64,000 nt of DNA, taken from assembly GCF_016026235.1 (NCBI RefSeq), contig NZ_CP065613.1; one strand, given 5' to 3'. Both the position numbers and the translations under genes were made by a program. Below the pieces are notes generated by a model. The model ran no database searches, was not told where the DNA came from, and worked only from the letters and a program-made list of their open reading frames with translations. Source of the stretch: Escherichia coli (GTDB lineage: Bacteria; Pseudomonadota; Gammaproteobacteria; Enterobacterales; Enterobacteriaceae). Below, piece after piece: positions 2,404 to 64,000 of the stretch (position 1 is the stretch's first letter; each line of letters opens with the position of its first letter).

Positions 2404-3483
2404 TTAATGTTGTCTGTCATACCAATACACCAGGCTCAACGCCACCAACACAAACGCTACCGGTAAACCGAGCGCGGTAACAGGTGCGCTTAACGCAAAT
2501 AGCAATCCCAGATTAACCATGATTTGATAGCTGATCCAGGTGAGTAAGCCCACGATGACGCCTACAGCGAGACGGCTACCCATCCCAGGCGAACGCGGGG
2601 CAGTAAAGGTAAACGGCACAGCCAGCAAAATCATCGCCAGGGTCAGGATGGGTTGCCCCAGTTTTTCCCACAGTGCAAGGCGGTATTCGCTGCTGGGTTG
2701 CCCGGTTTCCTGCAAATAATGGATGTAATGATTAAGCTGACGGACAGAAAAAGTATTCCCCGGCATTGATAACTCTTCAAGATTCATACTGGTGAAGGCC
2801 GATTGCCAGGCAAGATTATCTAATGTTTCCAGCGTTTCTTTGCCATTCAGCCATTTTTTATGATTCACACCATGCAGGACCCACGTTTTGTCGTCTTTAA
2901 TGGTGGCACTGCGTGCATAAATGTAGGATTCAAGCGAGAGATCGTCGGGATAATGAAATATCTCCACGCCCACCGGCTGGCCCTGCTCGTTCAGCGATTT
3001 CACCGTCACAAATTCATTACCACGCCTGGCCCACAGCATATTGCCGGTAATGTCATCGTCCTCCCCCAACGCGGTGGCGGTCGATTTGATTTGCAGCGCC
3101 TGTTGCTGCAATGGCGACGCCACCCACTCATCTATCGCGCCTAACGAAACAGTCCACAATATCCCGGCAACCAGCGCCACCAGTGCAATACGGAAGATAG
3201 AAAACCCCGTGCTGCGAATGGCGGTAAGCTCACTGTTTTTCGATAACTGCCCCAGGCCAACAATCCCTCCCAATAAGGCGATAAACGGCGAAAGTTCGAC
3301 CAGTGTGCGCGGTAAGGTCATTAGCACCACCAGCACCGCCTGAGTCCAGCGATAACCGCCCGGGCTGACATCATCCAGTTCGTTAATCAGGTTGAAGGTG
3401 GTAAAAAGCGGCAGCAATAGCCCTGCGGCGGCGGCAAAACCGAGAAAGAGATGACGGATTAAATAGCGACTGAAAACATTCAT
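2404..3483 (-). CDS. LptG-like (YjgP/YjgQ family) permease paralog
   Basis: ORF 2404-3564; likely start at internal Met (MNVFSRYLIRHLF) giving a 4-bp overlap with the upstream gene; multi-TM protein with C-terminal similarity to LptG. Confidence 0.7.
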   Translation of the reverse strand: MNVFSRYLIRHLFLGFAAAAGLLLPLFTTFNLINELDDVSPGGYRWTQAVLVVLMTLPRTLVELSPFIALLGGIVGLGQLSKNSELTAIRSTGFSIFRIALVALVAGILWTVSLGAIDEWVASPLQQQALQIKSTATALGEDDDITGNMLWARRGNEFVTVKSLNEQGQPVGVEIFHYPDDLSLESYIYARSATIKDDKTWVLHGVNHKKWLNGKETLETLDNLAWQSAFTSMNLEELSMPGNTFSVRQLNHYIHYLQETGQPSSEYRLALWEKLGQPILTLAMILLAVPFTFTAPRSPGMGSRLAVGVIVGLLTWISYQIMVNLGLLFALSAPVTALGLPVAFVLVALSLVYWYDRQH

Positions 3484-4550
3484 CGGGAAAATTTCTGCAG
3501 CAAAGAGAAGTCGCGTGCGACCAGCATCAGCAGGCCCATTAGCATGAGTCCGGGTACTAACCACAAACCAGGAATGAGGGGAATCGCGCCGTTAGCCACC
3601 AGCGTACGGCAGACGTCGCCGCCATAAAAAATGGCAATAAACAGCAACGTCAGTGGCAATAATGTTGAAAATCGCCCTTGCCGCGGTTTTACCCGACTTA
3701 ATGAAATGGCCAGCAGCGCCATCAACAATGCTGTCAGGCCACGGCTTTGCCGCCATTGCAGTTCGGCATGATCGGCAGGAAATACAGAGCGTGCCAGCTC
3801 CGTGACCGATTTTGCTTTGCGTTTGACGTTAGGGCTTTGATCCAGCGGATTCAGATGTAATTGCAGATTACGGTAGATCTGTTCATTGTCGTCACGCCCC
3901 TGATGATCGAGAAGATAGGCAGTGCCGTTGTGCAACATAACGGTCGGTTTCTCGGGTGATGGGTCAACCACATCAACCGAACGGGCGCGGAAAATGCGGG
4001 TTCGATTGGCAGTAGAAGTATAAATCAGCGCGTCAGTCAGGCGATTATTATCCTGATCAACCGTCTGCGAAAGGATCATTCGTCCGTTATCGTTAGTGTT
4101 AAATTTCTTTGCCCGCAACTGGCGAACATCCAGCTCCGACTGCGACTGCTGCTCCAGTTGATAAATCTGCGCATAAGCCCACGGACGACCATACATCGAC
4201 AGAAGGGTGACAAAAATACTTAGCGGTATCGCCAGATAAAGAACGGCTTTGTACAAGCGTCCCGGACTGCCCCCCGCCGCAGAGATAGCGGTAATTTCCG
4301 AGTCGGTATACATCTGCCCTAGCGTCACGCCAACTGACACATACAGACCAACAGGTAACAACATCTCCAGTGCAATCAGCACTTTGTAGAAAACGATATC
4401 CAGCACAACATCAAGAGCTAATGTCCCATTTGCCGCTTCGGTCAGATAACGCTGTGCGGAGTAGCTGGCGAAAATAAAGATCAGAAAACCGACGATAATC
4501 AGCACCAGACGGCGCGTACCACGCATGATGTAGTGTTCAACCAGCTTCAT
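3480..4550 (-). CDS. LptF-like (YjgP/YjgQ family) permease paralog
   Basis: 356-aa ORF; motif LGQMYTDSEITAISAAG resembling the conserved LptF/LptG segment; multi-TM. Confidence 0.7.
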   Translation of the reverse strand: MKLVEHYIMRGTRRLVLIIVGFLIFIFASYSAQRYLTEAANGTLALDVVLDIVFYKVLIALEMLLPVGLYVSVGVTLGQMYTDSEITAISAAGGSPGRLYKAVLYLAIPLSIFVTLLSMYGRPWAYAQIYQLEQQSQSELDVRQLRAKKFNTNDNGRMILSQTVDQDNNRLTDALIYTSTANRTRIFRARSVDVVDPSPEKPTVMLHNGTAYLLDHQGRDDNEQIYRNLQLHLNPLDQSPNVKRKAKSVTELARSVFPADHAELQWRQSRGLTALLMALLAISLSRVKPRQGRFSTLLPLTLLFIAIFYGGDVCRTLVANGAIPLIPGLWLVPGLMLMGLLMLVARDFSLLQKFSR

Positions 4551-4580
4551 CTCACTAACGCCCTCAATCCTTTGAATTTT

Positions 4581-5144
4581 TTATTCATTGATCAGTTTCT
4601 GCGCCAGCGCAATGACATGATCTACCTCTTCCGGCGTCAGGCTGCCGTCCTTTGCCCACTGAATTTGCCCGGTTTTATTCAGCACCAGAATGGTTGAACT
4701 CTGCTCCGGCAAGCGCCAGGCAACGCGTCCCTGTCCATTGCCGTCAATAACGAATTGCGCCCACGGATAGCGGCGTTTATTTTTTTCGATTTTGCCAACG
4801 ACAAAATAGCCAGTACCAAAGATGGCATCATCAGTGTTCACAATGGTGGTGGGCTGAAAACGATCCTGTGGAAAGTTTGCCGCTTCAACCGCTTTAATTA
4901 ACAGTGAGTTCTTCTTCTTCGCTGACTTACGCCCGGCGATATACTGGATAATGCGGACTTTTCCCGCCAATTGTGTGCTGTTCCACTTTTGGTAGTGAAT
5001 TTCGTCGTCGCTATTCAGAAGCAGCTCGCCGCCTTCCTGAATATAAACAGGGGTAACCGTTTTGCCAGTGACGAAATTGTGTGCCTGCACACCCGGGGCT
5101 AAGAGCATGATAATCAGCGCAATAATCAAACGAGATGACATCAT
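4581..5144 (-). CDS. secreted/periplasmic protein of unknown function
   Basis: 187-aa ORF with an N-terminal signal-peptide-like segment (LIIALIIMLLAPGVQA). Confidence 0.5.
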   Translation of the reverse strand: MMSSRLIIALIIMLLAPGVQAHNFVTGKTVTPVYIQEGGELLLNSDDEIHYQKWNSTQLAGKVRIIQYIAGRKSAKKKNSLLIKAVEAANFPQDRFQPTTIVNTDDAIFGTGYFVVGKIEKNKRRYPWAQFVIDGNGQGRVAWRLPEQSSTILVLNKTGQIQWAKDGSLTPEEVDHVIALAQKLINE

Positions 5145-5152
5145 TGCTCCGG

Positions 5153-5977
5153 TTATAGCGGAAAACGCGAAATCAGCAGCTCTAAGCGCTGGCGAATATC
5201 GCTATCCAGCGCCACCGGTGCATCATACGACTGGCGGTTTTCCATATCATCCGCCACCATGTCGTCGTGTTTATCCCCCATCAGGCCATTAATGGCGGCG
5301 AGGAAACGGGAAATCTGTAACGCCTCTTTATTTTCAGGATCAAGCGATCTTAAGGTGTCGTAATAAGAAACCTGCTGGCTGATGATTTTTCGCACATCAT
5401 GAAATTCCCTGCCGGTTAGTCGCGGTTTGGCAATTATCTCTTTCAGGGCATGCATTTGCTTTTGCCGATAGGCAATAAAACCGCTTACGCTTTCTAACTG
5501 GCTATGGCGTAATGAATAGTTCACCAACGACCAGACCGGAGAGCTTAAATAAATTCGTAACAGGTTGCCGTAATACGACACAATATTTTTCTTACCGTTA
5601 CGAAATCCGTCCTGAAAACGTCCCAGAAAAACGGTCGTTTTGCCGAATAAAAATCTGGCCTGATGCTTTTTTAAATACAGCCGTTGTGCAAAACGTAGAT
5701 GCTTGTAGCGCGCTCGCATGTATTTAAACTGTTTACGCTCGTCTGTCGTCAGCTCATCGCCTTTGGCTTGTTTGCGAATTAAACGAAGTAATTCCTGACG
5801 ATCAACGCCATTGAGCCAGAATTGCAGGCATAACGCGTAATTATCATGGATGATTTCGGTGGTACAACATAGTGCGATAGTCGGCGGCAAACTGACCTGG
5901 GCATCAACAACATCATCTTCCTCAATCGCAACAAATAGATGCTCGCTCGCCTCAAGCGGGAAATATTTTCTCATCAT
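5153..5977 (-). CDS. hypothetical protein (possible counterpart of the K-12 yghO pseudogene)
   Basis: 274-aa ORF, in operon orientation with flanking genes; no motif recognised. Confidence 0.45.
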   Translation of the reverse strand: MMRKYFPLEASEHLFVAIEEDDVVDAQVSLPPTIALCCTTEIIHDNYALCLQFWLNGVDRQELLRLIRKQAKGDELTTDERKQFKYMRARYKHLRFAQRLYLKKHQARFLFGKTTVFLGRFQDGFRNGKKNIVSYYGNLLRIYLSSPVWSLVNYSLRHSQLESVSGFIAYRQKQMHALKEIIAKPRLTGREFHDVRKIISQQVSYYDTLRSLDPENKEALQISRFLAAINGLMGDKHDDMVADDMENRQSYDAPVALDSDIRQRLELLISRFPL

Positions 5978-7326
5978 CAGGATTTCTCTCCGGCTGCGTT
6001 ATAAAGCAAGGAATGGCGCTGAAAAAAAGCCTTTAAGATCGGAATTAGCGAAAGCACCACATCCAGACATTGACCGCCGAAATAAGCAAACGCTGCTCCC
6101 AGCACGCCAAACAGATGACAGAACATGAACAGCAATACGATGTAGCCGATTGAGGCGATGGTTTGCGCCACGAGAAAAGCGCGCTGTTTTCCCGCCATCA
6201 ATAGCAATGACTCCTGAGGGAAGCCCAGCATCGAGATCACAATTGCGCCCAGCATCACCTGAATCAGGTCATACGCTTCGAGATACTTAACGCCAAACAC
6301 CAGCGAAATGAGCGGCTTGCCGACGATCAACACCGCGAGCGCCACCAGAATACCGATTCCGCCCGCCAGTAAACCGGACTTCACACCTAACAACCACGGT
6401 CTGGTGGTGCGCGGATCTAAACGCATCACCTCTGGGTAAAAACTTTTACCCAGCAAACCCGCTGGCGTTCCGGCGGCGTCGAAGAATGTCATGGCGATTT
6501 TAAATAACCCGGCGACAGCGGGTCCTAACACGATCCCCACCAACACTGTGCTGCACGAGTTACGCGCCGACCAGATGGAGTGGGCAATGTTGGTTGACCA
6601 GACAAAACTCCACGCGCCTTTAATGTGTCGGGCAGACTCAAACAGATTCAATTTGAAGGCGTTATGGATATTTCTGCGGCGTAATTCGCGCGCGGCAAAC
6701 CACCAGTACATGGTGCCGCCAACCAGATTCGACACGTACCAGGCAATAACAAAACCCGCAAAACCAAAGTCAAAATACCAGGCTGCGACGCTCCCCGCTG
6801 CGCGCAGAAAAGGTTTCGTCGCCTGCTGTACAGCAATCAAATCAAAGCGATCTACCGCACGCAGAATGCCGGTCGGCGTGGAGGAAGCCATTGAAGGAAT
6901 GAGCGTGCAATACAGCGCTGCCAGCCAAAAGCTTTGGTCATCCAGACCTAATGAATGGGAAAGAAAAGGGAGTAAGGCAATGCCGCCGACAATCGCCACC
7001 GCGCCGCTGACGATATCCAGCGAGAAGGAAAATGAGACGACATTGCGAAATTGCTGCGGATTATTGTTGGTTAATGCTGGTGTTCCGTACTGAACCACCA
7101 GCTGCCATGTCTGAAACTTAATAAAATCGCTGATCGACTTGGCGTACGATTGCACAATCACCAGTACGCCAAACATGGCGGGCGTCATCCCTTTACCGGC
7201 ACACGAGAGCGCCAACAGACCCAGCAAGGCGCTCACGACATTACTGGAGCCTAACCAGGCGCTATTGCGAATAATGGTGCGAAACGCGCCATCTGCAAAC
7301 CAATGTTTGATGTTAAAACCCGCCAA
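5977..7326 (-). CDS. yghQ: polytopic inner-membrane protein, flippase-like (polysaccharide-biosynthesis/MOP type)
   Basis: 449-aa highly hydrophobic ORF; position immediately before yghR as in K-12. Confidence 0.6.
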   Translation of the reverse strand: MAGFNIKHWFADGAFRTIIRNSAWLGSSNVVSALLGLLALSCAGKGMTPAMFGVLVIVQSYAKSISDFIKFQTWQLVVQYGTPALTNNNPQQFRNVVSFSFSLDIVSGAVAIVGGIALLPFLSHSLGLDDQSFWLAALYCTLIPSMASSTPTGILRAVDRFDLIAVQQATKPFLRAAGSVAAWYFDFGFAGFVIAWYVSNLVGGTMYWWFAARELRRRNIHNAFKLNLFESARHIKGAWSFVWSTNIAHSIWSARNSCSTVLVGIVLGPAVAGLFKIAMTFFDAAGTPAGLLGKSFYPEVMRLDPRTTRPWLLGVKSGLLAGGIGILVALAVLIVGKPLISLVFGVKYLEAYDLIQVMLGAIVISMLGFPQESLLLMAGKQRAFLVAQTIASIGYIVLLFMFCHLFGVLGAAFAYFGGQCLDVVLSLIPILKAFFQRHSLLYNAAGEKS

Positions 7327-7371
7327 TTCAGCCTGACCTTATCGTTGATAGTAAAAAGTATCCCGCCAGCC

Positions 7372-8130
7372 TTAAGTTAAACTTCGGCGGTCAGAAACGA
7401 TGGCAACCAGAGAAACCGCCTTCTGTGCCTGTTCCAGCACTTCGCTGTAGGGCGCTCTGGAATCAATCTCAAGAATTTTTGTGCCGTTATAGCCAATCGT
7501 CGACATAACACTGATTTTGTCCTGCAGCTCGGCATAGTCATGGTCAGGCTTGCGGGAGATGGCAGTCTCAATATCAATGCCCAGGCGAATAATTAATTCC
7601 GGGCGATATTGCGCCATTTGTTGGTATAAACGCCGTTCGCGCTGCGCCAGAAACATGCTGATTTTCCCGGTCGCACGTTCGACGCCAATCCCCGGTCCGT
7701 CATAATAAAAGCCCGAAATTTCAGCCTGCGGGAAGCGATCGCTGACCACCAGAACGCCACTTTGCGCCAGTCGCTGAACCTTGCGTAGATTCGCCATTCT
7801 TCGCAGCGAGAAGCAGTACATAATCACCGCCGCCCATAGCGCCGGAGATTTGGTTTTCATGCTTTGGGTTTTCGAGGATTTGGCCGCCAGTCGCCGTTCC
7901 AGCCAGACGCCAACCAACGGCAATCGTTTGATTTTGTCGCCGTCTTCGCCGGAGAGCAGCCCCAAATAGCGGCGCTCGGTTTGCCAGTGTTGTTGCAGCG
8001 ATTTCACCAGGTCGGTGGTCAGTGTGGATTTACCGGTGCCATCACACCCGACCACCGCAATCAGCCCCGGAATGTAGTTGGGCTGCGGCGCGGTTGTACT
8101 AATAACAGTTTGTGTTTGTAGTGCATCCAT
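7372..8130 (-). CDS. yghR: P-loop ATP-binding protein
   Basis: 252-aa ORF; Walker A VVGCDGTGKST; paralog of the next two genes. Confidence 0.7.
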   Translation of the reverse strand: MDALQTQTVISTTAPQPNYIPGLIAVVGCDGTGKSTLTTDLVKSLQQHWQTERRYLGLLSGEDGDKIKRLPLVGVWLERRLAAKSSKTQSMKTKSPALWAAVIMYCFSLRRMANLRKVQRLAQSGVLVVSDRFPQAEISGFYYDGPGIGVERATGKISMFLAQRERRLYQQMAQYRPELIIRLGIDIETAISRKPDHDYAELQDKISVMSTIGYNGTKILEIDSRAPYSEVLEQAQKAVSLVAIVSDRRSLT

Positions 8131-44916: not shown

Positions 44917-45627
44917 TTACTCATTAATCAATTTTTTGATATGTTCTCTAATCTCTAACAACCTCATACCATAAGAGATGAATTTATAATCATCTGTATC
45001 ACGCGCAGGCAAATTATTAATTAAATAAATAAAAAACCCCAAATCTCGTTCAACACCACGATTATATCTAATACCAGCCATAATATACTGCTCATTCGTC
45101 ATATACAGTGTTGCCGAAGAGGGATAATCAAAAAGGGCAAGATCTCTTAAATGAGTAGCAGCAATTTGAAACGTAAAATCATCTTCCATTAGGCATGTCG
45201 CTAACTCTAACTGATTTCTGGTAGTTAATTCTGAAGGGTCAAGACCTAGAGTAATCGCTGCGGTTCGTATTTGTATACCCATTGAGCCAAATGATGTTTT
45301 ATTTTCAGGCATATCTAACAATCCAATCATTCTTTTTGTTTCATATATCTGAAACTTATAATTTTCAGGCATACCTCCTGACTCAATCCAGGCCACACCG
45401 CCCAGTAACTCTGGACGAATCCCAGCGGCATATGCATGTTTAATTATTTTGTCCCTATTATATTGTACATATGCATCTTTATAAGCATTTAAATAATATA
45501 CTCCCGAACGGCGACGCGAATCATTTTTTCCTAACTTCCAGAGTAAAACGTCCATTTCATCCCATTTACGGAACTTAGTTTGTGGAATTGTACAATAGCT
45601 ATTTTTTATAGTGAGATCGCTTTTCAT
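44917..45627 (-). CDS. candidate T6SS cargo effector with lysozyme-like / lytic-transglycosylase-like motifs
   Basis: ORF 44917-45654; AT-rich; motifs AWIESGG, SMGIQIRTAA and AGIRYNRG resemble the ES / GLMQ / AYNAG motifs of SLT domains (weak, by eye). Confidence 0.45.
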   Translation of the reverse strand: MKSDLTIKNSYCTIPQTKFRKWDEMDVLLWKLGKNDSRRRSGVYYLNAYKDAYVQYNRDKIIKHAYAAGIRPELLGGVAWIESGGMPENYKFQIYETKRMIGLLDMPENKTSFGSMGIQIRTAAITLGLDPSELTTRNQLELATCLMEDDFTFQIAATHLRDLALFDYPSSATLYMTNEQYIMAGIRYNRGVERDLGFFIYLINNLPARDTDDYKFISYGMRLLEIREHIKKLINE

Positions 45628-45629
45628 AT

Positions 45630-46109
45630 TTAAAAAACCCTTTCTTCCCAACAACTATATGATTCCGTACTCGCGATATGGTGCTTCCATGTTATATTTT
45701 TATAATTAAGAACAATAACCTCTTCCGGTTGATTACCCGCATGTGTAATTGAGTGTGGATAACAAGTCAGAATATTCGATAAATGTGCCCCTTGCAATTC
45801 AATTGTGTAAAACCTTTCAATACAACCGCCAGAATTAATTCTATAAAAATTAAATATAGCTGATAACTCTTCATTTTCAGAAAGAGCAGCATTTAATAAA
45901 GGGGAGGATTTATCTATTGGCTTGTAAAATTTTATGGGGTGATGCACTACATTATATTCTCGACTTAAAGAATGGTCGAACTGCAAAACAAAAATTTCAT
46001 CCACATGATTTATTTGATATTTATTACCAATAGATGCATACGAACCACAGCCCTCAGAGATCAAACCTTGTGTTTTCCCTTTAATTGATAAGTATATGAT
46101 ATTTGACAT
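45630..46109 (-). CDS. hcp: Hcp-family type VI secretion tube protein (orphan)
   Basis: 159 aa; alignable along its length to enterobacterial Hcp1, including the C-terminal NYKNITWKH...SYSCWEE block. Confidence 0.8.
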   Translation of the reverse strand: MSNIIYLSIKGKTQGLISEGCGSYASIGNKYQINHVDEIFVLQFDHSLSREYNVVHHPIKFYKPIDKSSPLLNAALSENEELSAIFNFYRINSGGCIERFYTIELQGAHLSNILTCYPHSITHAGNQPEEVIVLNYKNITWKHHIASTESYSCWEERVF

Positions 46110-55447: not shown

Positions 55448-56236
55448 TTAACCTACCTGCACCGACAGCATACTCAGGCTGCCCATTTCTATACCCTCAA
55501 CCGGAATGGTAATTGGCTCCTGCCCATCCCACGCACCTAACACATACAACAACGGCAGATAATGCTCTGGCGTTGGGTTCGATAACGCGCCACCTTCATG
55601 GTCGAGGTAATTCACCAGAGGATGTTGTTCCACTGGCCCTTGCCACGTCAGATTCGCTTTCACATACTCATTAAACGACGTCGCCCACGGATACGGTGAA
55701 CTATCACCGTGCCACTTCACTGTGCGCAGGTTATGCACCACGTTACCGCTGGCGACCAACATTATTCCTTCATCTCGCAGCGCTGCCAGTTTGCGCCCCA
55801 TTTCGAAATGCCAAGCGGCAGGTTTGCTACTGTCGATACTCAACTGCACCATCGGGATATCCGCGTCAGGATACATCTTAATCAGCACGCCCCAGGAACC
55901 GTGGTCAAAGCCCCAGGCTTCTTTATCCAGCGTCACCGGGATCGGCGCTAACAGCTCAACCAGACGCTGTGCCAGCGCAGGCGAACCCGGAGCAGGATAA
56001 TGCGTATCGTACAGCGCCTGCGGGAAGCCACCAAAGTCATGAATCGTGGGCGGCGTCTCCATCGCGGTCACTCCTGTTCCACGGGTAAACCAGTGAGCCG
56101 AAACCACCACAATCGCTTGCGGGCGTGGCAATGTCATCCCCAACTTCTGCCAGCTGCGGGTATACAAATTATCTTCCAGCACGTTCATCGGACTACCGTG
56201 ACCTAAAAACAATGCTGGCATACGTGTTGAAGACAT
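55448..56236 (-). CDS. ygiD: 4,5-DOPA dioxygenase extradiol-like protein
   Basis: 262 aa from MSSTRMPALFLGHGSP. Confidence 0.85.
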   Translation of the reverse strand: MSSTRMPALFLGHGSPMNVLEDNLYTRSWQKLGMTLPRPQAIVVVSAHWFTRGTGVTAMETPPTIHDFGGFPQALYDTHYPAPGSPALAQRLVELLAPIPVTLDKEAWGFDHGSWGVLIKMYPDADIPMVQLSIDSSKPAAWHFEMGRKLAALRDEGIMLVASGNVVHNLRTVKWHGDSSPYPWATSFNEYVKANLTWQGPVEQHPLVNYLDHEGGALSNPTPEHYLPLLYVLGAWDGQEPITIPVEGIEMGSLSMLSVQVG

Positions 56237-56378
56237 GATGATATCCTTAACTAAAGGTGTCATTTTGATATCCTCACAATACGCTTGTTCGGCGGAGTAA
56301 GAACCCGGATAACAATGATGATGATCATCAGTTATTTTGACGATCTGCCTGAAGGTGAAGATTTATAAGGAGTTGTCG

Positions 56379-57152
56379 ATGTCAGTACCTCTCATTCTGA
56401 CCATACTGGCGGGGGCAGCCACGTTTATTGGCGCGTTTCTCGGCGTTCTCGGGCAAAAACCCTCGAACCGCTTACTGGCGTTTTCGCTAGGATTTGCGGC
56501 GGGGATCATGTTGCTCATCTCATTAATGGAAATGCTTCCTGCCGCACTAGCTGCTGAAGGAATGTCGCCTGTGTTGGGTTATGGAATGTTTATCTTCGGT
56601 CTGCTTGGCTATTTTGGCCTGGACCGCATGTTGCCGCATGCGCATCCGCAGGATTTAATGCAAAAATCGGTGCAGCCGTTGCCAAAATCGATCAAGCGCA
56701 CAGCCATACTGCTCACTCTCGGCATCAGTCTGCATAACTTCCCGGAAGGGATTGCCACCTTTGTCACGGCGAGCAGCAACCTGGAGCTAGGCTTTGGCAT
56801 CGCCCTGGCCGTAGCGTTGCACAATATTCCTGAAGGTCTGGCGGTTGCAGGCCCGGTTTACGCGGCAACGGGGTCTAAACGCACGGCAATTCTGTGGGCG
56901 GGGATTTCTGGACTAGCAGAAATTCTTGGTGGTGTGCTGGCGTGGTTAATCCTCGGTAGCATGATTTCCCCGGTGGTCATGGCGGCAATCATGGCGGCGG
57001 TTGCAGGAATTATGGTGGCGCTCTCGGTTGATGAATTAATGCCGCTCGCCAAAGAGATTGACCCTAATAATAACCCCAGCTATGGCGTACTATGTGGAAT
57101 GTCAGTGATGGGATTCAGTTTAGTGCTGCTACAAACGGCGGGAATTGGTTAA
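56379..57152 (+). CDS. zupT: ZIP-family zinc transporter
   Basis: 257 aa from MSVPLILT. Confidence 0.9.
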
Positions 57153-57209
57153 AAGCAACATCAGAAGTTGTCCAGCGCATGGACAACTTCTGCTAGCTTC
57201 ACTAAAGCC

Positions 57210-57380
57210 TTATTCTACCTTTTCGGCTGTCTCTTCTCTCGTACTGTTTAAGTATTTGTTCCGCGCTTCAAGCAGTGCGTCTCTGTCCTGGCGAAACGCC
57301 CGACAATAACGTTTCAAATGCAGGAAATAACCCACCACAACCAGAACAATCAATACAATCCAGTACCAGGCGATAAACAT
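57210..57380 (-). CDS. small single-TM membrane protein
   Basis: short ORF with hydrophobic N-terminus; start uncertain. Confidence 0.35.
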   Translation of the reverse strand: MFIAWYWIVLIVLVVVGYFLHLKRYCRAFRQDRDALLEARNKYLNSTREETAEKVE

Positions 57381-57571
57381 CCTTTTACCCTTAATATTTA
57401 ACAATACTAAACATTTAGCGCATAAATTTCACATATCCTTTTTCGGATATATTCATATGGTCGCATAATAACGGAACAATTATATGATTTTGATCATAAT
57501 GAAAAAGAATGCCTGATATTAATGAAATTTTCTCATAGAAAGAGAAGCGGAATTAACATCTTGCATAGCAG

Positions 57572-57609
57572 GGAAAAATAAAAACCGAAGCCTGCTACAA
57601 CTTCGGTTT
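57572..57609 (-). terminator. rho-independent terminator of ribB
   Basis: aaaccgaag / cttcggttt hairpin with U-run on the minus strand. Confidence 0.6.
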
Positions 57610-57641
57610 CTTGATTAAGGCAGTAAATTAAGCAGCGGTTT

Positions 57642-58295
57642 TCAGCTGGCTTTACGCTCATGTGCCTGACGGTATGCCACCAAGTCTTCAATAGTCACGA
57701 GTGCCATATTGTGTTTATTGGCAAACTCAATGCACTCTGGTGCACGCGCCATCGTGCCATCGTCATTAGTCAGCTCACACAGCACACCAGCCGGTTTAAA
57801 GCCTGCCAGCGTCATTAGATCAATAGTTGCTTCAGTATGACCGCCACGCGTCAGTACACCACCAGCCTGAGCGCGGAGTGGGAAAACGTGGCCCGGGCGA
57901 TTCAGATCAGAAGGTTTTGCGCCATCGGCAATCGCTGCGCGAACGGTCGTAATACGGTCAGCGGCAGAAACACCGGTAGTCACACCTTCAGCCGCTTCAA
58001 TGGTCACGGTAAAACCGGTGCCATAGGCGCTGGTGTTATTTTCTACCATCATTGGCAGATCGAGTTGTTTACGGCGATCTTCAGTAATGCACAGGCAAAC
58101 AATACCGCTACCGTGGCGAATGGTCAGCGCCATCTGCTCAACGGTCATGGTTTCTGCCGGGAAGATCATATCACCTTCGTTTTCACGGTCTTCATCATCA
58201 AGCACCATTACACCGCGTCCTTCACGCAGCGCAGCCAGTGCATTTTCAACACGTTCGAAAGGCGTACCAAAAGAGGAAAGTAGCGTCTGATTCAT
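57642..58295 (-). CDS. ribB: 3,4-dihydroxy-2-butanone-4-phosphate synthase
   Basis: 217 aa. Confidence 0.95.
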
Positions 58296-58319
58296 GGTAA
58301 AAAAACCTCACTAAAATTA

Positions 58320-58560
58320 TGGTTACCAGAATCAGGGCAGTCTTAGGAGTGGCGGCATATAGCCAAAATAACGTGAGCGGGTCCATGCCCGACAGAATCG
58401 TTACTCTCTCCCATCCGGACTCTAACCGTCGGCCCCGGAATTACACCGGATCTGCTGTCCTTTGAGTTCGCACCCAAAGCGCTCGCGGGCTTTCAACTGA
58501 GTTGATTTACCGCCGGTGGGGAATTTCGCCCCGCCCTGAGAATAAGCGGATTCACTATAA
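58320..58560 (-). promoter_or_regulatory. FMN riboswitch (RFN element) in the ribB leader
   Basis: long structured 5' leader; minus-strand sequence contains ggggccgacggttagagtccggatgggagag, matching conserved RFN core segments; boundaries approximate. Confidence 0.6.
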
Positions 58561-58668
58561 CGCTAATGATTAGCGGCAGCAACGCATAGCTTCACATAAT
58601 TCTGGTTTATGACTTACCCTTATCGCACTACAATGGCACTCAACACCTATCAGTACAGGGAAACTACA

Positions 58669-58968
58669 ATGATTGACCCGAAAAAAATTGAGCAAATCGC
58701 TCGCCAGGTTCACGAATCAATGCCTAAAGGAATCAGGGAGTTCGGGGAAGATGTGGAGAAAAAAATCCGCCAAACCCTACAAGCGCAGCTGACGCGTCTC
58801 GATCTGGTGAGCCGCGAAGAATTCGACGTACAGACGCAAGTCCTGTTACAGACTCGTGAAAAACTGGCGTTACTGGAGCAGCGCATCAGTGAACTGGAGG
58901 CGCGCAATAATTCGGTAGCAGATCTTCAATCTCCTCCGGCTATCCCGCCTATTGATAAAGCAGAATAA
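58669..58968 (+). CDS. ubiK: ubiquinone biosynthesis accessory factor (coiled-coil)
   Basis: 99 aa from [13 protein letters not shown]. Confidence 0.8.
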
Positions 58969-58980
58969 AGCAACACAAAA

Positions 58981-58998
58981 ACGGGCCAGACGGCCCGT
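58981..58998. terminator. bidirectional stem-loop between ubiK and glgS
   Basis: acgggcc-aga-cggcccgt. Confidence 0.45.
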
Positions 58999-59002
58999 AA
59001 TA

Positions 59003-59203
59003 TCAGTGTTCTAATTCAAGTTCTCTGGTTTGCATCATCTGTTGGCAATACCAGGCATAACGTGCGCAAAACCAGGTTCTATGTTCTTCATCCATGTTAC
59101 CAGTAACGGCCAGAATATCGACCGGGCGACCTTCTGCGTGCATTCTGGCAAAACTACGCGCCAGGAAATCGAAATTATTTAAAGAATTAAGACTATGATC
59201 CAT
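59003..59203 (-). CDS. glgS: glycogen synthesis / surface composition regulator
   Basis: 66 aa from [18 protein letters not shown]. Confidence 0.85.
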
Positions 59204-59471
59204 AAGCACATCCTCCGGTTATCGCATACCTTTTAAGGCCATATGCTTTTTCTGATTTCAGTATTCCCCAATCAGTGTAGTGCCTTTAAACATAACGTGC
59301 GTAAATATATTGTCCCCGATCACACTTTTTAGTGAAAAATAAAAAACCATATTAAAAGACTTTCTCTTCCAGAACTTCTCTAACGTGTGTTATTATTAAT
59401 AAAGATAAATGTAAGCAAGGAAACTATCCCAAAGTGAATATTGCGTCACTAAATGGACATTGGAGTGACAT

Positions 59472-60101
59472 ATGATTTTATTCGCCGACTATAATACCCC
59501 TTATCTTTTCGCTATTTCCTTTGTACTGTTGATCGGCCTTTTAGAAATTTTTGCGCTTATCTGCGGTCACATGCTCTCCGGTGCTCTTGATGCACATCTT
59601 GACCATTATGATTCCATAACCACAGGTCATATTAGCCAGGCACTTCATTATCTCAATATCGGAAGATTGCCAGCTCTCGTCGTTCTCTGCTTGCTGGCTG
59701 GTTTTTTTGGTCTTATTGGCATCCTGTTGCAGCATGCCTGCATCATGGTCTGGCAATCACCACTGTCGAACCTGTTCGTGGTTCCTGTCAGTTTACTGTT
59801 TACGATTATTGCGGTGCATTATACCGGTAAAATAGTTGCGCCCTGGATTCCACGCGACCATAGTTCAGCTATTACAGAAGAAGAATATATTGGTAGCATG
59901 GCATTAATTACCGGTCATCAAGCCACTTCAGGTAATCCCTGCGAAGGAAAACTCACCGATCAATTTGGCCAAATACATTATTTACTACTGGAGCCTGAAG
60001 AAGGAAAAATTTTCACTAAAGGAGACAAAGTGTTAATTATTTGCCGACTTTCTGCAACGCGATATTTGGCGGAAAACAATCCCTGGCCCCAAATATTGTA
60101 A
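59472..60101 (+). CDS. yqiJ: inner-membrane protein
   Basis: 209 aa. Confidence 0.8.
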
Positions 60102-60127
60102 TTTATTAATCAAAAGGAAATTTAATA

Positions 60128-61789
60128 ATGGATGATATTGTTAATTCTGTGCCCTCCTGGATGTTTACCGCGATTATTGCCGTATGCATTCTGTTTATTA
60201 TTGGAATTATTTTCGCCAGGCTCTATCGTCGCGCTTCAGCAGAGCAAGCATTTGTCCGTACCGGCTTAGGGGGGCAAAAAGTGGTAATGAGCGGTGGCGC
60301 AATCGTGATGCCGATCTTTCATGAAATAATCCCCATCAATATGAATACTCTGAAGCTGGAAGTCAGCCGCTCAACCATTGATAGCCTGATTACGAAAGAT
60401 CGTATGCGCGTCGATGTAGTAGTCGCTTTCTTTGTGCGGGTAAAACCTTCAGTAGAAGGGATTGCCACCGCTGCCCAGACGCTGGGGCAACGCACCCTGT
60501 CGCCTGAAGACTTACGTATGTTGGTTGAAGATAAATTTGTCGATGCCCTCCGTGCAACAGCTGCGCAAATGACCATGCATGAGTTACAGGATACCCGCGA
60601 GAACTTCGTGCAGGGAGTACAAAATACCGTAGCTGAAGATCTGTCGAAAAACGGCCTGGAACTGGAAAGCGTTTCACTTACCAACTTTAACCAGACCTCG
60701 AAAGAACATTTCAATCCGAACAATGCCTTTGACGCCGAAGGTTTAACCAAACTGACTCAGGAGACGGAGCGCCGTCGCCGCGAGCGTAACGAAGTTGAAC
60801 AGGATGTAGAAGTTGCGGTGCGTGAGAAAAACCGTGATGCACTTTCGCGCAAGTTGGAGATTGAACAACAAGAAGCGTTTATGACGCTTGAGCAGGAGCA
60901 GCAAGTTAAAACCCGTACCGCTGAACAAAATGCGAAAATTGCTGCTTTTGAAGCTGAACGTCGTCGTGAAGCAGAGCAGACGCGAATTCTGGCTGAACGA
61001 CAGATTCAGGAAACAGAAATCGACCGCGAACAGGCCGTCCGCTCAAGAAAAGTTGAAGCTGAACGTGAAGTTCGCATTAAAGAGATCGAACAGCAGCAGG
61101 TCACCGAAATCGCTAACCAGACGAAATCGATCGCTATTGCCGCCAAATCGGAACAACAGTCCCAGGCAGAAGCGCGTGCTAACCTTGCACTCGCAGAAGC
61201 AGTAAGCGCCCAACAAAACGTAGAAACCACTCGCCAGACAGCCGAAGCCGATCGTGCCAAGCAGGTGGCGCTGATTGCCGCAGCACAGGATGCAGAAACC
61301 AAAGCGGTTGAACTGACCGTGCGGGCGAAAGCAGAAAAAGAAGCCGCAGAGATGCAGGCGGCGGCGATCGTTGAGTTAGCCGAAGCTACGCGTAAAAAAG
61401 GCCTGGCGGAAGCAGAAGCACAACGTGCGCTGAACGATGCTATCAACGTACTTTCTGACGAACAAACCAGCCTTAAATTCAAACTGGCCTTGTTGCAGGC
61501 GCTACCTGCGGTAATAGAGAAATCCGTGGAACCAATGAAGTCCATTGACGGTATCAAGATTATTCAGGTCGATGGTCTGAATCGTGGTGGTACTGCGGGG
61601 GATGCAAACACGGGTAATGTGGGGGGCGGAAACCTGGCGGAACAAGCATTATCAGCCGCACTCTCTTACCGCACACAGGCACCACTGATTGACTCCTTGC
61701 TCAATGAAATTGGCGTTTCAGGCGGCTCACTGGCTGCATTGACTTCACCCTTAACCTCAACAACTCCCGTCGCCGAAAACGTAGAATAA
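60128..61789 (+). CDS. yqiK: SPFH/band-7 (flotillin-like) protein with long coiled-coil
   Basis: 553 aa. Confidence 0.85.
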   Translation: MDDIVNSVPSWMFTAIIAVCILFIIGIIFARLYRRASAEQAFVRTGLGGQKVVMSGGAIVMPIFHEIIPINMNTLKLEVSRSTIDSLITKDRMRVDVVVAFFVRVKPSVEGIATAAQTLGQRTLSPEDLRMLVEDKFVDALRATAAQMTMHELQDTRENFVQGVQNTVAEDLSKNGLELESVSLTNFNQTSKEHFNPNNAFDAEGLTKLTQETERRRRERNEVEQDVEVAVREKNRDALSRKLEIEQQEAFMTLEQEQQVKTRTAEQNAKIAAFEAERRREAEQTRILAERQIQETEIDREQAVRSRKVEAEREVRIKEIEQQQVTEIANQTKSIAIAAKSEQQSQAEARANLALAEAVSAQQNVETTRQTAEADRAKQVALIAAAQDAETKAVELTVRAKAEKEAAEMQAAAIVELAEATRKKGLAEAEAQRALNDAINVLSDEQTSLKFKLALLQALPAVIEKSVEPMKSIDGIKIIQVDGLNRGGTAGDANTGNVGGGNLAEQALSAALSYRTQAPLIDSLLNEIGVSGGSLAALTSPLTSTTPVAENVE

Positions 61790-61974
61790 ATTTTCAGCTA
61801 TGAACATCCCTGGCCCAAAAAGCCGAGGATTTTTTATATCTGCGTTCCGATAAAAAGTGCAAATGATCGGGCTGTTGCAGCATTTTGCGTGACCGCTCGG
61901 GGAAGGCAAAACTACCTCAGGGAAAGCGTTGCGCGGGGTCCGGCGCTCATCAACAATCGGGGAGTCAGCAAGGG

Positions 61975-62114
61975 GCTGAAACGGGAAAGCCCCTCCCGAA
62001 GAAGGGGCCTTGTATAAGGAAAGGGTTATGATGAAGCTCGTCATCATACTGATTGTGTTGTTACTCGTAAGTTTCGCAGCTTATTAACAGCCAATCAGAG
62101 GGGGGAGAAATCCT
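61975..62114 (-). ncRNA. sibD: SibD antitoxin sRNA body (antisense to ibsD), separated from its promoter by the IS insertion
   Basis: sequence homologous to the intact second copy; boundaries inferred. Confidence 0.4.
62028..62087 (+). CDS. ibsD: type I toxin peptide Ibs (19 aa, MMKLVIILIVLLLVSFAAY)
   Basis: direct translation; hydrophobic 19-mer. Confidence 0.8.
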   Translation: MMKLVIILIVLLLVSFAAY

Positions 62115-63407
62115 CTGAGGGATCCCCAGAAAATTTAGTAAACCATTATCATATTGGTATACCGTTGCTGTAGAACTTTCAGCCCTGCGTCAAATGACAG
62201 TGTGTTTAGTATGAGTGGAGAATGTCGAATCACATTCTCCGCCAGTTTTAATAACGAGATGACTCGCCTGTGCTTCACTGTATTTGCCTGATATTTATGA
62301 TGTATCCCTTTGTTTTCCAGGCTGAAACCGCTTAACCACATAATGATACTGGCTAATGTTGCGATCAGACTCAATACCGTGACCCGCCCGGATGAATGAC
62401 TGGCACCAAACCGTAGTCCAAATCCCCAGCGAGGATTTTTTTCATCCCTGAAATTTTGCTCAATTTGCATTCTACGGCTGTATAATTTCATTACCTGTTT
62501 TGGCGAGAACTCAGTACTGTTTGTGAAAATAAACCATGGTGATTTCCCGGCAGTACGAGCTTTAGCCGTCACCGATGGTCTGGTTGCTCTTTCCTTCGAG
62601 CGTTTAAATCTACGACCTTTAGGCTTACTTTTATAAAGATAAAAATGCCCTTCATGTTGTGCATTTTTATCTCGACCCAGCAGGCCTTCACCTAAATAAA
62701 TTGCTGTCGTTGATGCTTTTGTGCCTGAGTCCGACACCTTTTCCCAGCCATTACCAACATTGTAATAATGATTGCCCAGTACCCGGCAAATATAGGTCCA
62801 GCCACGGGAGCGGAGCTGTTGGAACCATCGCCCCTGAAAACCGGCATCTGTAATAACAATGACATCAGTCCCGGGGGAAAAGCACTCAGCAAGCGATTCC
62901 AGAAAACGCTCATGTACATCTGCATTCGCTGTCTGTGATGATGGAACGACACAACTCATCAACGGTAAAGAACGCCCGTCACATGCCAGGCTTGCCCGCA
63001 AAAGCTGAAAACGAGAGGCATGATAAGCACTCCAGTCAATGAGTATCACAACACGAGACATTCCCGCGTAATCTTTTGGGTAATTCGCTGAAAAATGGTG
63101 GAAACCTCATTTTGCAAATGTCGATTCCCCAACAGTCGATCCACCCGCTTTATTTTGTTTTTAACTGATGCCGTACCGGTTAAATGACGCCCGATACTGG
63201 TAAGTGTGAGGGAAGCGCCATTTATTACAGCATTAGTTGCGTCAATCAGTGATTTTTGACGGTAAAGATGCAAAGGGGCCAGTATATTGTTAAGGAAATT
63301 TTGGCATAATGAACGTGCAGGCATAGTGGTGATCTCCTTGAAATTGTTAGCACAATCAATTAGATCACATCTCACTATGCCTGTCTTGTTTTCTGGGGAT
63401 TCCTCAG
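62115..63407 (-). mobile_element. IS4-family, IS10-like insertion sequence (1293 bp)
   Basis: 19-bp imperfect terminal inverted repeats ctgagggatccccagaaaa / ctgaggaatccccagaaaa; flanked by direct repeats gagaaatcct (9-10 bp target-site duplication) that are single-copy in the second ibs/sib repeat. Confidence 0.8.
62135..63324 (-). CDS. IS10-like DDE transposase, encoded in two overlapping frames (possible frameshift near 63046-63061)
   Basis: N-terminal part (MPARSLCQ...NRHLQNE) and C-terminal part (VILIDWS...LYSRRMQIEQNFRDEK) both align by eye to IS10 transposase; reading frame changes between ITRE and SRVVIL. Confidence 0.7.
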
Positions 63408-63436
63408 GAGAAATCCTCCCTTACCCTTGTTCCTTT

Positions 63437-63465
63437 ACTTTAGGTTGAAAAAAAATCAGCGTCAA
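63437..63465 (-). promoter_or_regulatory. predicted sibD promoter (TTGACG-17 bp-TAAAGT), now directed into the IS right end
   Basis: hexamers read on the minus strand; equivalent TTGACG-17-TAGAGT at 63813-63841 in the second copy. Confidence 0.45.
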
Positions 63466-63654
63466 GAAGGTTTCATTAACACATATCCCTAGCCCAAAAA
63501 GCCGGGGATTTTTTATATCTGCGTTCCGCTAAAAGGTGCAAATGCTCAGGACGTTGCAGCGTTTTGCGTGACCGCTCGGGGAAGGCAAAACTGCTTCAGG
63601 GAAAGCGTTGCGCGGGGTCCGGCGCTCATCAACAATCGGGGAGTCAGCAAGGGG

Positions 63655-63805
63655 CTGAAACGGGAAAGCCCCTCCCGAGGAAGGGGCCTTATAGAAGGAA
63701 AGGGTTATGATGAAGCTCGTCATCATACTGGTTGTGTTGTTACTGTTAAGTTTCCCGACTTACTAACAACTGATCAGAGGGGGGAGAAATCCTCCCTTAC
63801 CCTTG
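63655..63805 (-). ncRNA. sibE: SibE antitoxin sRNA (antisense to ibsE)
   Basis: predicted promoter at 63813-63841 and a hairpin plus U-rich tract near 63655-63690 on the minus strand; boundaries approximate. Confidence 0.45.
63707..63766 (+). CDS. ibsE: type I toxin peptide Ibs (19 aa, MMKLVIILVVLLLLSFPTY)
   Basis: direct translation. Confidence 0.8.
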   Translation: MMKLVIILVVLLLLSFPTY

Positions 63806-63885
63806 TTCCTTTACTCTAGGTTGAAAAAACAACAGCGTCAATAGGCCTGCCATGTACGAAGCGAGATCTGTGAACCGCTTTCCGG

Positions 63886-64000
63886 TTAGCCTTTTTTATC
63901 CTGTTGGATCTTCTTGATAATGTTAGTGGTCGAGCAACCGTCTTCAAAGTTGAGCACCAACACTTCGCCGCCGTTGGCCCAGACTTCTTTACTCCCGGCG
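63886..64000 (-). CDS. hldE: 3' end (partial, runs off window) of bifunctional heptose kinase/adenylyltransferase
   Basis: minus-strand translation ends ...[28 protein letters not shown]-stop. Confidence 0.7.

Follow-up and report, generated by a model that had tools for sequence, protein, structure and literature searches.

In Escherichia coli K-12, a chaperone-usher fimbrial operon, ygiL-yqiGHI, lies between the genes ubiK and glgS; in the stretch of E. coli DNA analyzed here (64 kb, referred to as the window), the two genes face each other without it. The question raised by this junction is whether an operon was removed from it, whether it is an attachment site that has stayed vacant, or whether it represents the arrangement from which the K-12 state arose. 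A sequence-only reading of the window had described ubiK and glgS as convergent genes about 35 bp apart around one shared stem-loop, had remarked on the missing fimbrial operon, and, in view of the K-12 gene order, had termed the junction an empty site. The comparisons presented here make it highly probable that the junction is native and ancestral, and that the operon of K-12 is a later, one-time import.

In the window, ubiK (yqiC) is encoded on the plus strand at positions 58669-58968 as a native Escherichia-type allele of 99 amino acids, and glgS on the minus strand at 59003-59203, specifying 66 amino acids. UbiK was recognized by the NCBIfam equivalog NF047835 (147.2 bits against a cut-off of 100, residues 1-89 of 99) and GlgS by the equivalog NF002793 (148.3 bits, cut-off 105, residues 1-66); both calls agree with the RefSeq annotation of FDAARGOS_943, a 99.9%-identical genome. 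With the TAA stop codon of ubiK at 58966-58968 and the TGA of glgS at 59003-59005 (minus strand), the sequence and ORF coordinates leave a gap of 34 bp, 58969-59002, that holds exactly all the bases between the two stops. The convergence and close spacing first described were thus borne out, as was the absence of the operon: ygiL and yqiGHI were not found in the window by blastn with K-12 or by tblastn, and tblastn returned no match to Yqi-like or EA/I (Yqi) coding sequence anywhere in the 64 kb. With ubiK and glgS contiguous, the junction is an operon-free allele of the Yqi-like fimbrial locus. To its left lie ribB (57642-58295, minus strand; NCBIfam ribB domain) and the FMN riboswitch of ribB (58399-58547, minus strand; Rfam RF00050, 120.9 bits). 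Residue 61 of UbiK is Q in the window (A at 58850) and R (G) in K-12, a B1-type strain, B2, the divergent Escherichia L003, and E. albertii; on this comparison, Q61 is a lineage-specific substitution.

The gap between the genes contains a single GC-rich hairpin, ACGGGCC-agac-GGCCCGT, at 58981-58998. A 53-nt stretch containing it folds at -17.3 kcal/mol (z = -4.7), and none of 200 shuffles was as stable. A terminator scan called the hairpin on the minus strand, that of glgS, with seven pairs, six of them G-C, a loop of 4 nt and the tail TTTTGTGTTG, a T-tract located at 58971-58980 in the minus-strand reading. The same scan made no call on the plus strand, that of ubiK, where a run of A residues precedes the stem and the sequence following it, AATATCAGTG, is not a T-tract. 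The pattern of an intrinsic terminator is therefore present for glgS and not for ubiK. That the hairpin also ends ubiK transcripts is plausible, and termination in both directions is something we infer; of the stem-loop proposed as shared, the single hairpin stands, and its call is confined to the minus strand. The stem is kept across Escherichia, Citrobacter, Salmonella, Raoultella, and Klebsiella, with varying loops: most of the outgroups combine the same CGGGCC/GGCCCG stem with another loop, and Superficieibacter and Pseudocitrobacter present a different hairpin in the same place. K-12 also retains it, there between yqiI and glgS. The chance that the hairpin is a different kind of element, for example a REP-like repeat, a palindrome bound by a protein, or a feature of a small RNA, appears negligible. 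The perfect symmetry of the palindrome and the missing T-tract on the ubiK strand would suit such an element, but the glgS strand fits the terminator pattern, an Rfam search of 56000-64000 at gathering thresholds found no RNA family at the junction, and a position beside both stop codons is conserved across genera, including the two in which the sequence has been replaced and a hairpin is still found. The hairpin would thus be the site of intrinsic termination for glgS, and would probably stop transcription of ubiK as well.

The gene order of K-12 proved to be as described in the sequence-only reading. The annotation of MG1655 gives ubiK (b3042), ygiL (b3043), yqiG (b3046, split by IS2), yqiH, yqiI, and glgS (b3049), and alignment of the junction to K-12 and other genomes supported its operon-free state. 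The term empty site nevertheless captures only part of the difference; the operon is indeed missing, but the K-12 allele is no clean insertion, as 73 bp of the window are replaced there by 6638 bp. Homology detected by blastn ends at 58898, at about codon 77 of ubiK, and restarts at 58972. The segment without a close K-12 counterpart, 58899-58971 on the plus strand, comprises the last 22 codons of ubiK, its stop codon, and 3 bp, and is about 50% identical to K-12 over the tail region. K-12 UbiK is 96 amino acids long and ends in ...NRSTEIKKQPDPETLPPTL.

If the K-12 operon had entered the 3' end of ubiK by transposition or by site-specific integration, the window would preserve the true attachment site and K-12 an island-encoded UbiK tail; such an origin would account for a left breakpoint inside ubiK and for the AT-richness of the island, whose GC content is 40% overall and drops to 23% in the ubiK-ygiL spacer, compared with about 50% in the flanks. 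However, the island as annotated in K-12 contains no integrase, no tRNA, and no transposase other than that of the secondary IS2 inside yqiG, and its edges display no target-site repeats and no direct or inverted repeats beyond chance (8-mers only, where shuffles reach 11). With flanks that are diverged as well, the junction does not have the makeup of the classical empty attachment site of a mobile island. Insertion of a mobile element was rejected as the origin of the K-12 state, edge repeats, integrase, and tRNA all being absent.

The divergence of the flanks has a sharply bounded distribution. Compared with K-12 and the B1 type, the first 128 nt of ubiK (58669-58796) contain no differences, the following 94 bp (58797-58890) contain 17, mostly at third codon positions, the stretch from 58977 to 59045 (the hairpin loop and the last ~14 codons of glgS) contains 12-13, and 59046-59203 almost none. 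The B2 strain, which has no operon between ubiK and glgS, differs from the window at only four positions per side. Base by base, the stretch that is strongly diverged in the operon-bearing haplotypes (K-12, B1 type) thus extends from 58797 to 59045; it looks like the footprint of an imported block in those strains, and like unrecombined native sequence in the window. Diverged synonymous sites that reach about 100 bp into both flanks are not produced by insertion, which again speaks against integration into ubiK. Since some of the K-12 variants also occur in outgroups and those at 58809, 58850, and 58890 are specific to the window, the cluster could in part reflect ancestral polymorphism that was retained, or change in the window lineage.

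The K-12-type and B1-type operons share their breakpoints and UbiK tail, and their flanks are identical except for one private position each on the right (59045 in K-12, 59111 in the B1 type), which points to a single founding event for both. The Yqi-like operon would accordingly be the derived state, with one origin in E. coli. We infer that it arrived as one divergent block of DNA, most likely by homologous recombination, with crossovers in ubiK near 58797 and in the 3' end of glgS near 59045; the block would have brought in a foreign 3' part of ubiK and the final ~14 codons of glgS, and between these the AT-rich spacer, all four fimbrial genes, and the hairpin. The interior of the operon (L001 4933-9208 compared with L084) is about 5% apart between A-type and B1-type strains, which, given identical flanks, one event alone is insufficient to explain. 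Two haplogroups are apparent, one of about 1574 records at 99% identity to K-12 or above and one of about 1689 records at 90-95%; their YqiI proteins are only 92.7% identical, while the variants of the flanking block are the same. A later recombination event, or diversifying selection acting on the adhesin, may lie behind this divergence.

The polarity of the change was assessed with an outgroup scan of at least 80 UbiK-encoding loci, one genome per species, among which E. fergusonii and other Escherichia species were not represented. All of the listed outgroups that possess glgS have it directly after ubiK, convergent and 28-73 bp away, and none of the 80 listed loci has fimbrial genes between the two. 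The adjacent state was found in E. albertii, Citrobacter (six loci, with the junction examined at base level), Salmonella enterica arizonae, Superficieibacter, Pseudocitrobacter, Raoultella, Klebsiella spallanzanii, and the divergent Escherichia L003. The C-terminal tails of UbiK follow the same division: the outgroup consensus is APAIPPVDPQE, E. albertii has ...TPPVDKSE, and L003 has ...SPPAIPPVDKAE; the tail of the window is similar to its counterparts in E. albertii, Citrobacter, and Salmonella, and that of K-12 is not. As adjacency and tail type are common to the outgroups and the window, the adjacent state is the ancestral one and the K-12 state is derived. Judged from gene order and tail alike, the operon-free junction is the plesiomorphic arrangement and not a product of excision; ubiK and glgS converging on one short GC-rich hairpin would be the native enterobacterial organization, with no loss having occurred at this point.

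The frequency of each state was determined among 5426 complete E. coli genomes. A Yqi-like operon is present between ubiK and glgS in 3362 of them (about 62%), and an EA/I operon between yqiD and ribB in 994. Neither operon is present in 1114, one in five, where both sites are contiguous as in the window; this double-empty group contains O157:H7 and O55:H7 strains, and the 131-bp junction of the window is 100% identical to that of the O157:H7 strain TR01. The K-12-type tail with the left island edge was likewise counted in 3362 genomes, and the equality of the two counts implies strict linkage of tail and operon. About 27 genomes match neither junction query. One of them, E. coli BS-01 (L089 2269-2545), has a window-type allele in which a deletion of about 65 bp takes out the UbiK tail; its annotated ORF of 88 amino acids extends into the hairpin, and an assembly error is possible. 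Decay of the operon itself was encountered as the IS2 in yqiG of K-12, a truncation by IS600 in CFSAN004176, and a frameshifted ygiL in SMN013SH2.

These counts bear on whether an ancestor of the window lineage could have had ygiL-yqiGHI and lost it, by deletion or through allelic replacement from an operon-free E. coli. E. coli strains frequently lose fimbrial operons or carry broken ones, as the IS2, IS600, and frameshift cases illustrate, and an operon-free allele brought in by homologous recombination would leave no scar. A simple deletion, however, would have kept the K-12-type tail and the flank substitutions, and the window has an outgroup-type tail and none of the block-specific variants; the matching counts of tail and operon (3362 of 5426 each) give no sign of genomes with the tail and without the operon; and the adjacent state is found in every listed outgroup that has glgS. 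Such a secondary loss is therefore distinctly improbable. A deletion scar in the window was rejected, its UbiK tail being of the outgroup type and the number of K-12 block variants zero. On the preferred reading, in which the junction is native, the lineage of the window would never have acquired the Yqi-like block, and the related EA/I operon is missing from it too.

The source of the block was sought through its UbiK tail. When UbiK was searched as a protein, the K-12-type tail turned up in E. coli and Shigella; a diverged form of it, ...ENRSTVTVVKDDQETLPPTL, turned up in the two loci L087 and L088, which represent one lineage about 78-84% identical to Escherichia. The ubiK gene of these loci aligns with that of K-12 through the tail and with that of the window only up to the tail. 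This lineage is operon-free, and the homology of its tail to that of K-12 indicates that the K-12-type tail is a genuine UbiK tail from another lineage and not an island-encoded one; integration into the 3' end of ubiK, already at odds with the edges and flanks of the island, is left as a highly improbable origin. The loci themselves (L087 152-846 and L088 235-929, from two public sequencing runs) have a 191-bp ubiK-glgS spacer with an extra inverted repeat, a GlgS of 70 amino acids, and no fimbrial operon. Neither the UbiK protein search nor the at least 80 outgroup loci yielded a donor that combines a closely similar tail with a closely similar operon between ubiK and glgS. The UbiK of K-12, of about 62% of E. 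coli, and of several Shigella is probably a natural chimera; its 3' part, with a foreign 19-residue C-terminal tail, would have come in alongside the Yqi-like operon and the glgS end from an enterobacterial lineage not yet sampled, and strains of the window type would keep the native protein. The full proposal, in which the two forms of UbiK also function differently with UbiJ in ubiquinone synthesis, we regard as rather unlikely.

A second empty site is located 1.3 kb to the left of the junction. In the B2 strain SF-468, a 5.5-kb EA/I (Yqi) operon lies between yqiD and ribB, and blastn of the window against SF-468, together with the SF-468 annotation, showed that the window has 145 bp at this place, 57499-57643, between yqiD and the ribB stop. 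The EA/I proteins are 59, 55, 49, and 37.5% identical to those of the K-12 Yqi-like operon, and 53, 71, 58, and 56% identical to those of an operon adjacent to ribB in K. spallanzanii, to which the EA/I operon is nearer in protein identity than to its K-12 relative; the K-12 usher shares 40-56% in the comparison with outgroup operons. Local transposition of one operon between the yqiD-ribB and ubiK-glgS sites was rejected, given that the two are only 37-59% identical in protein and that EA/I is closer to K. spallanzanii. Operons of the order ygiL-yqiG-yqiH-yqiI adjoin the 3' end of ribB, the position of EA/I in B2, in Enterobacter, Lelliottia, some Citrobacter, K. spallanzanii, and Pseudocitrobacter (loci L011, L016, L020, L023, L025, L026, L029-L031, L057, L074, and L076), at about 3000-7900 in each locus and with 31-56% amino acid identity to K-12. 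In the zupT-yqiD flank, the window and SF-468 are only 91.7% identical, which indicates a divergent haplotype beside the EA/I operon.

Two further features of the window were observed in passing. An IS4-like element of the ISEc60 family, 1291 bp long at 62116-63406, is bordered by a 12-bp target duplication, GGAGAAATCCTC, at 62104-62115 and 63407-63418. It sits in the ibs/Sib toxin-antitoxin repeat region, where an Rfam Sib match at 62013-62152 spans its left end, and it is missing at this site in FDAARGOS_943, the closest genome. Compared with other copies, the one in the window is shorter by 1 nt, and two ORFs, of 109 and 308 amino acids, divide its transposase between them. The element is rare, occurring at full length in 14 of the 5426 genomes, but at least 38 copies are present in FDAARGOS_943, and it is also found on ~290-kb plasmids of strain CFSAN029787. 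At about 44917-46109 (from L086 6418-7610), between ygiZ and mdaB, the annotation of the closest genome places an Hcp-family type VI secretion effector and a hypothetical protein.

Yqi and Yqi-like fimbriae have been described as closely related, mutually exclusive, and encoded at different positions, with Yqi in phylogroup B2 and Yqi-like in other phylogroups (Wurpel et al., 2013, PMC3559732), and EA/I (ExPEC adhesin I) was characterized and associated with B2 and ST95 (Antao et al., 2009, PMC2771359). The presence/absence polymorphism of the Yqi-like operon is thus common and already documented (PMC3559732, PMC2771359). The genome counts agree with the mutual exclusivity of the two and show in addition that one complete genome in five lacks both; Yqi-like was also tied to phylogroup E (Wurpel et al., 2013, PMC3559732), whereas the O157:H7 and O55:H7 genomes counted here are without it. 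What the present analysis adds is minor: the ancestral polarity, a replacement that takes in the UbiK tail, the footprint of recombination, and a second empty site. The junction would nonetheless offer a tidy case in which a fimbrial operon was gained by homologous recombination and the positions of the crossovers can still be seen. The K-12 UbiK that has been studied experimentally would bear a non-native C-terminal tail, which is relevant to its comparison with YqiC of Salmonella and with other lineages of E. coli, and the three states seen at ribB-ubiK-glgS could provide a simple marker of lineage.

Among known arrangements, the ygiL-yqiGHI ('Yqi-like') locus of K-12 (PMC3559732) matches the window in having ribB and ubiK on the left, glgS, yqiJ, and yqiK on the right, and the hairpin beside glgS; the window differs from it in lacking the 6.6-kb segment, in its native UbiK of 99 amino acids, and in being free of the block-specific flank substitutions. 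The B2 strains with EA/I (PMC2771359; Wurpel et al., 2013) share with the window the adjacency of ubiK and glgS and the native-type UbiK tail, but have 5.5 kb of operon where the window has its 145 bp. The O157:H7/O55:H7-type arrangement is the same at both empty sites, although over its whole length the window is closest to FDAARGOS_943 only (99.8-99.9%), the next genome being 98.8% identical. At the level of the junction itself, the comparison is with the intrinsic terminators that lie between convergent genes, a general class composed of a hairpin and a U-tract. The ubiK strand departs from this class, since an A-tract precedes the stem there and a T-tract does not follow it; the GC-rich 7-bp stem, the 4-nt loop, the T-tract on the glgS strand, and the position beside two converging stop codons are all features that the hairpin has in common with it.
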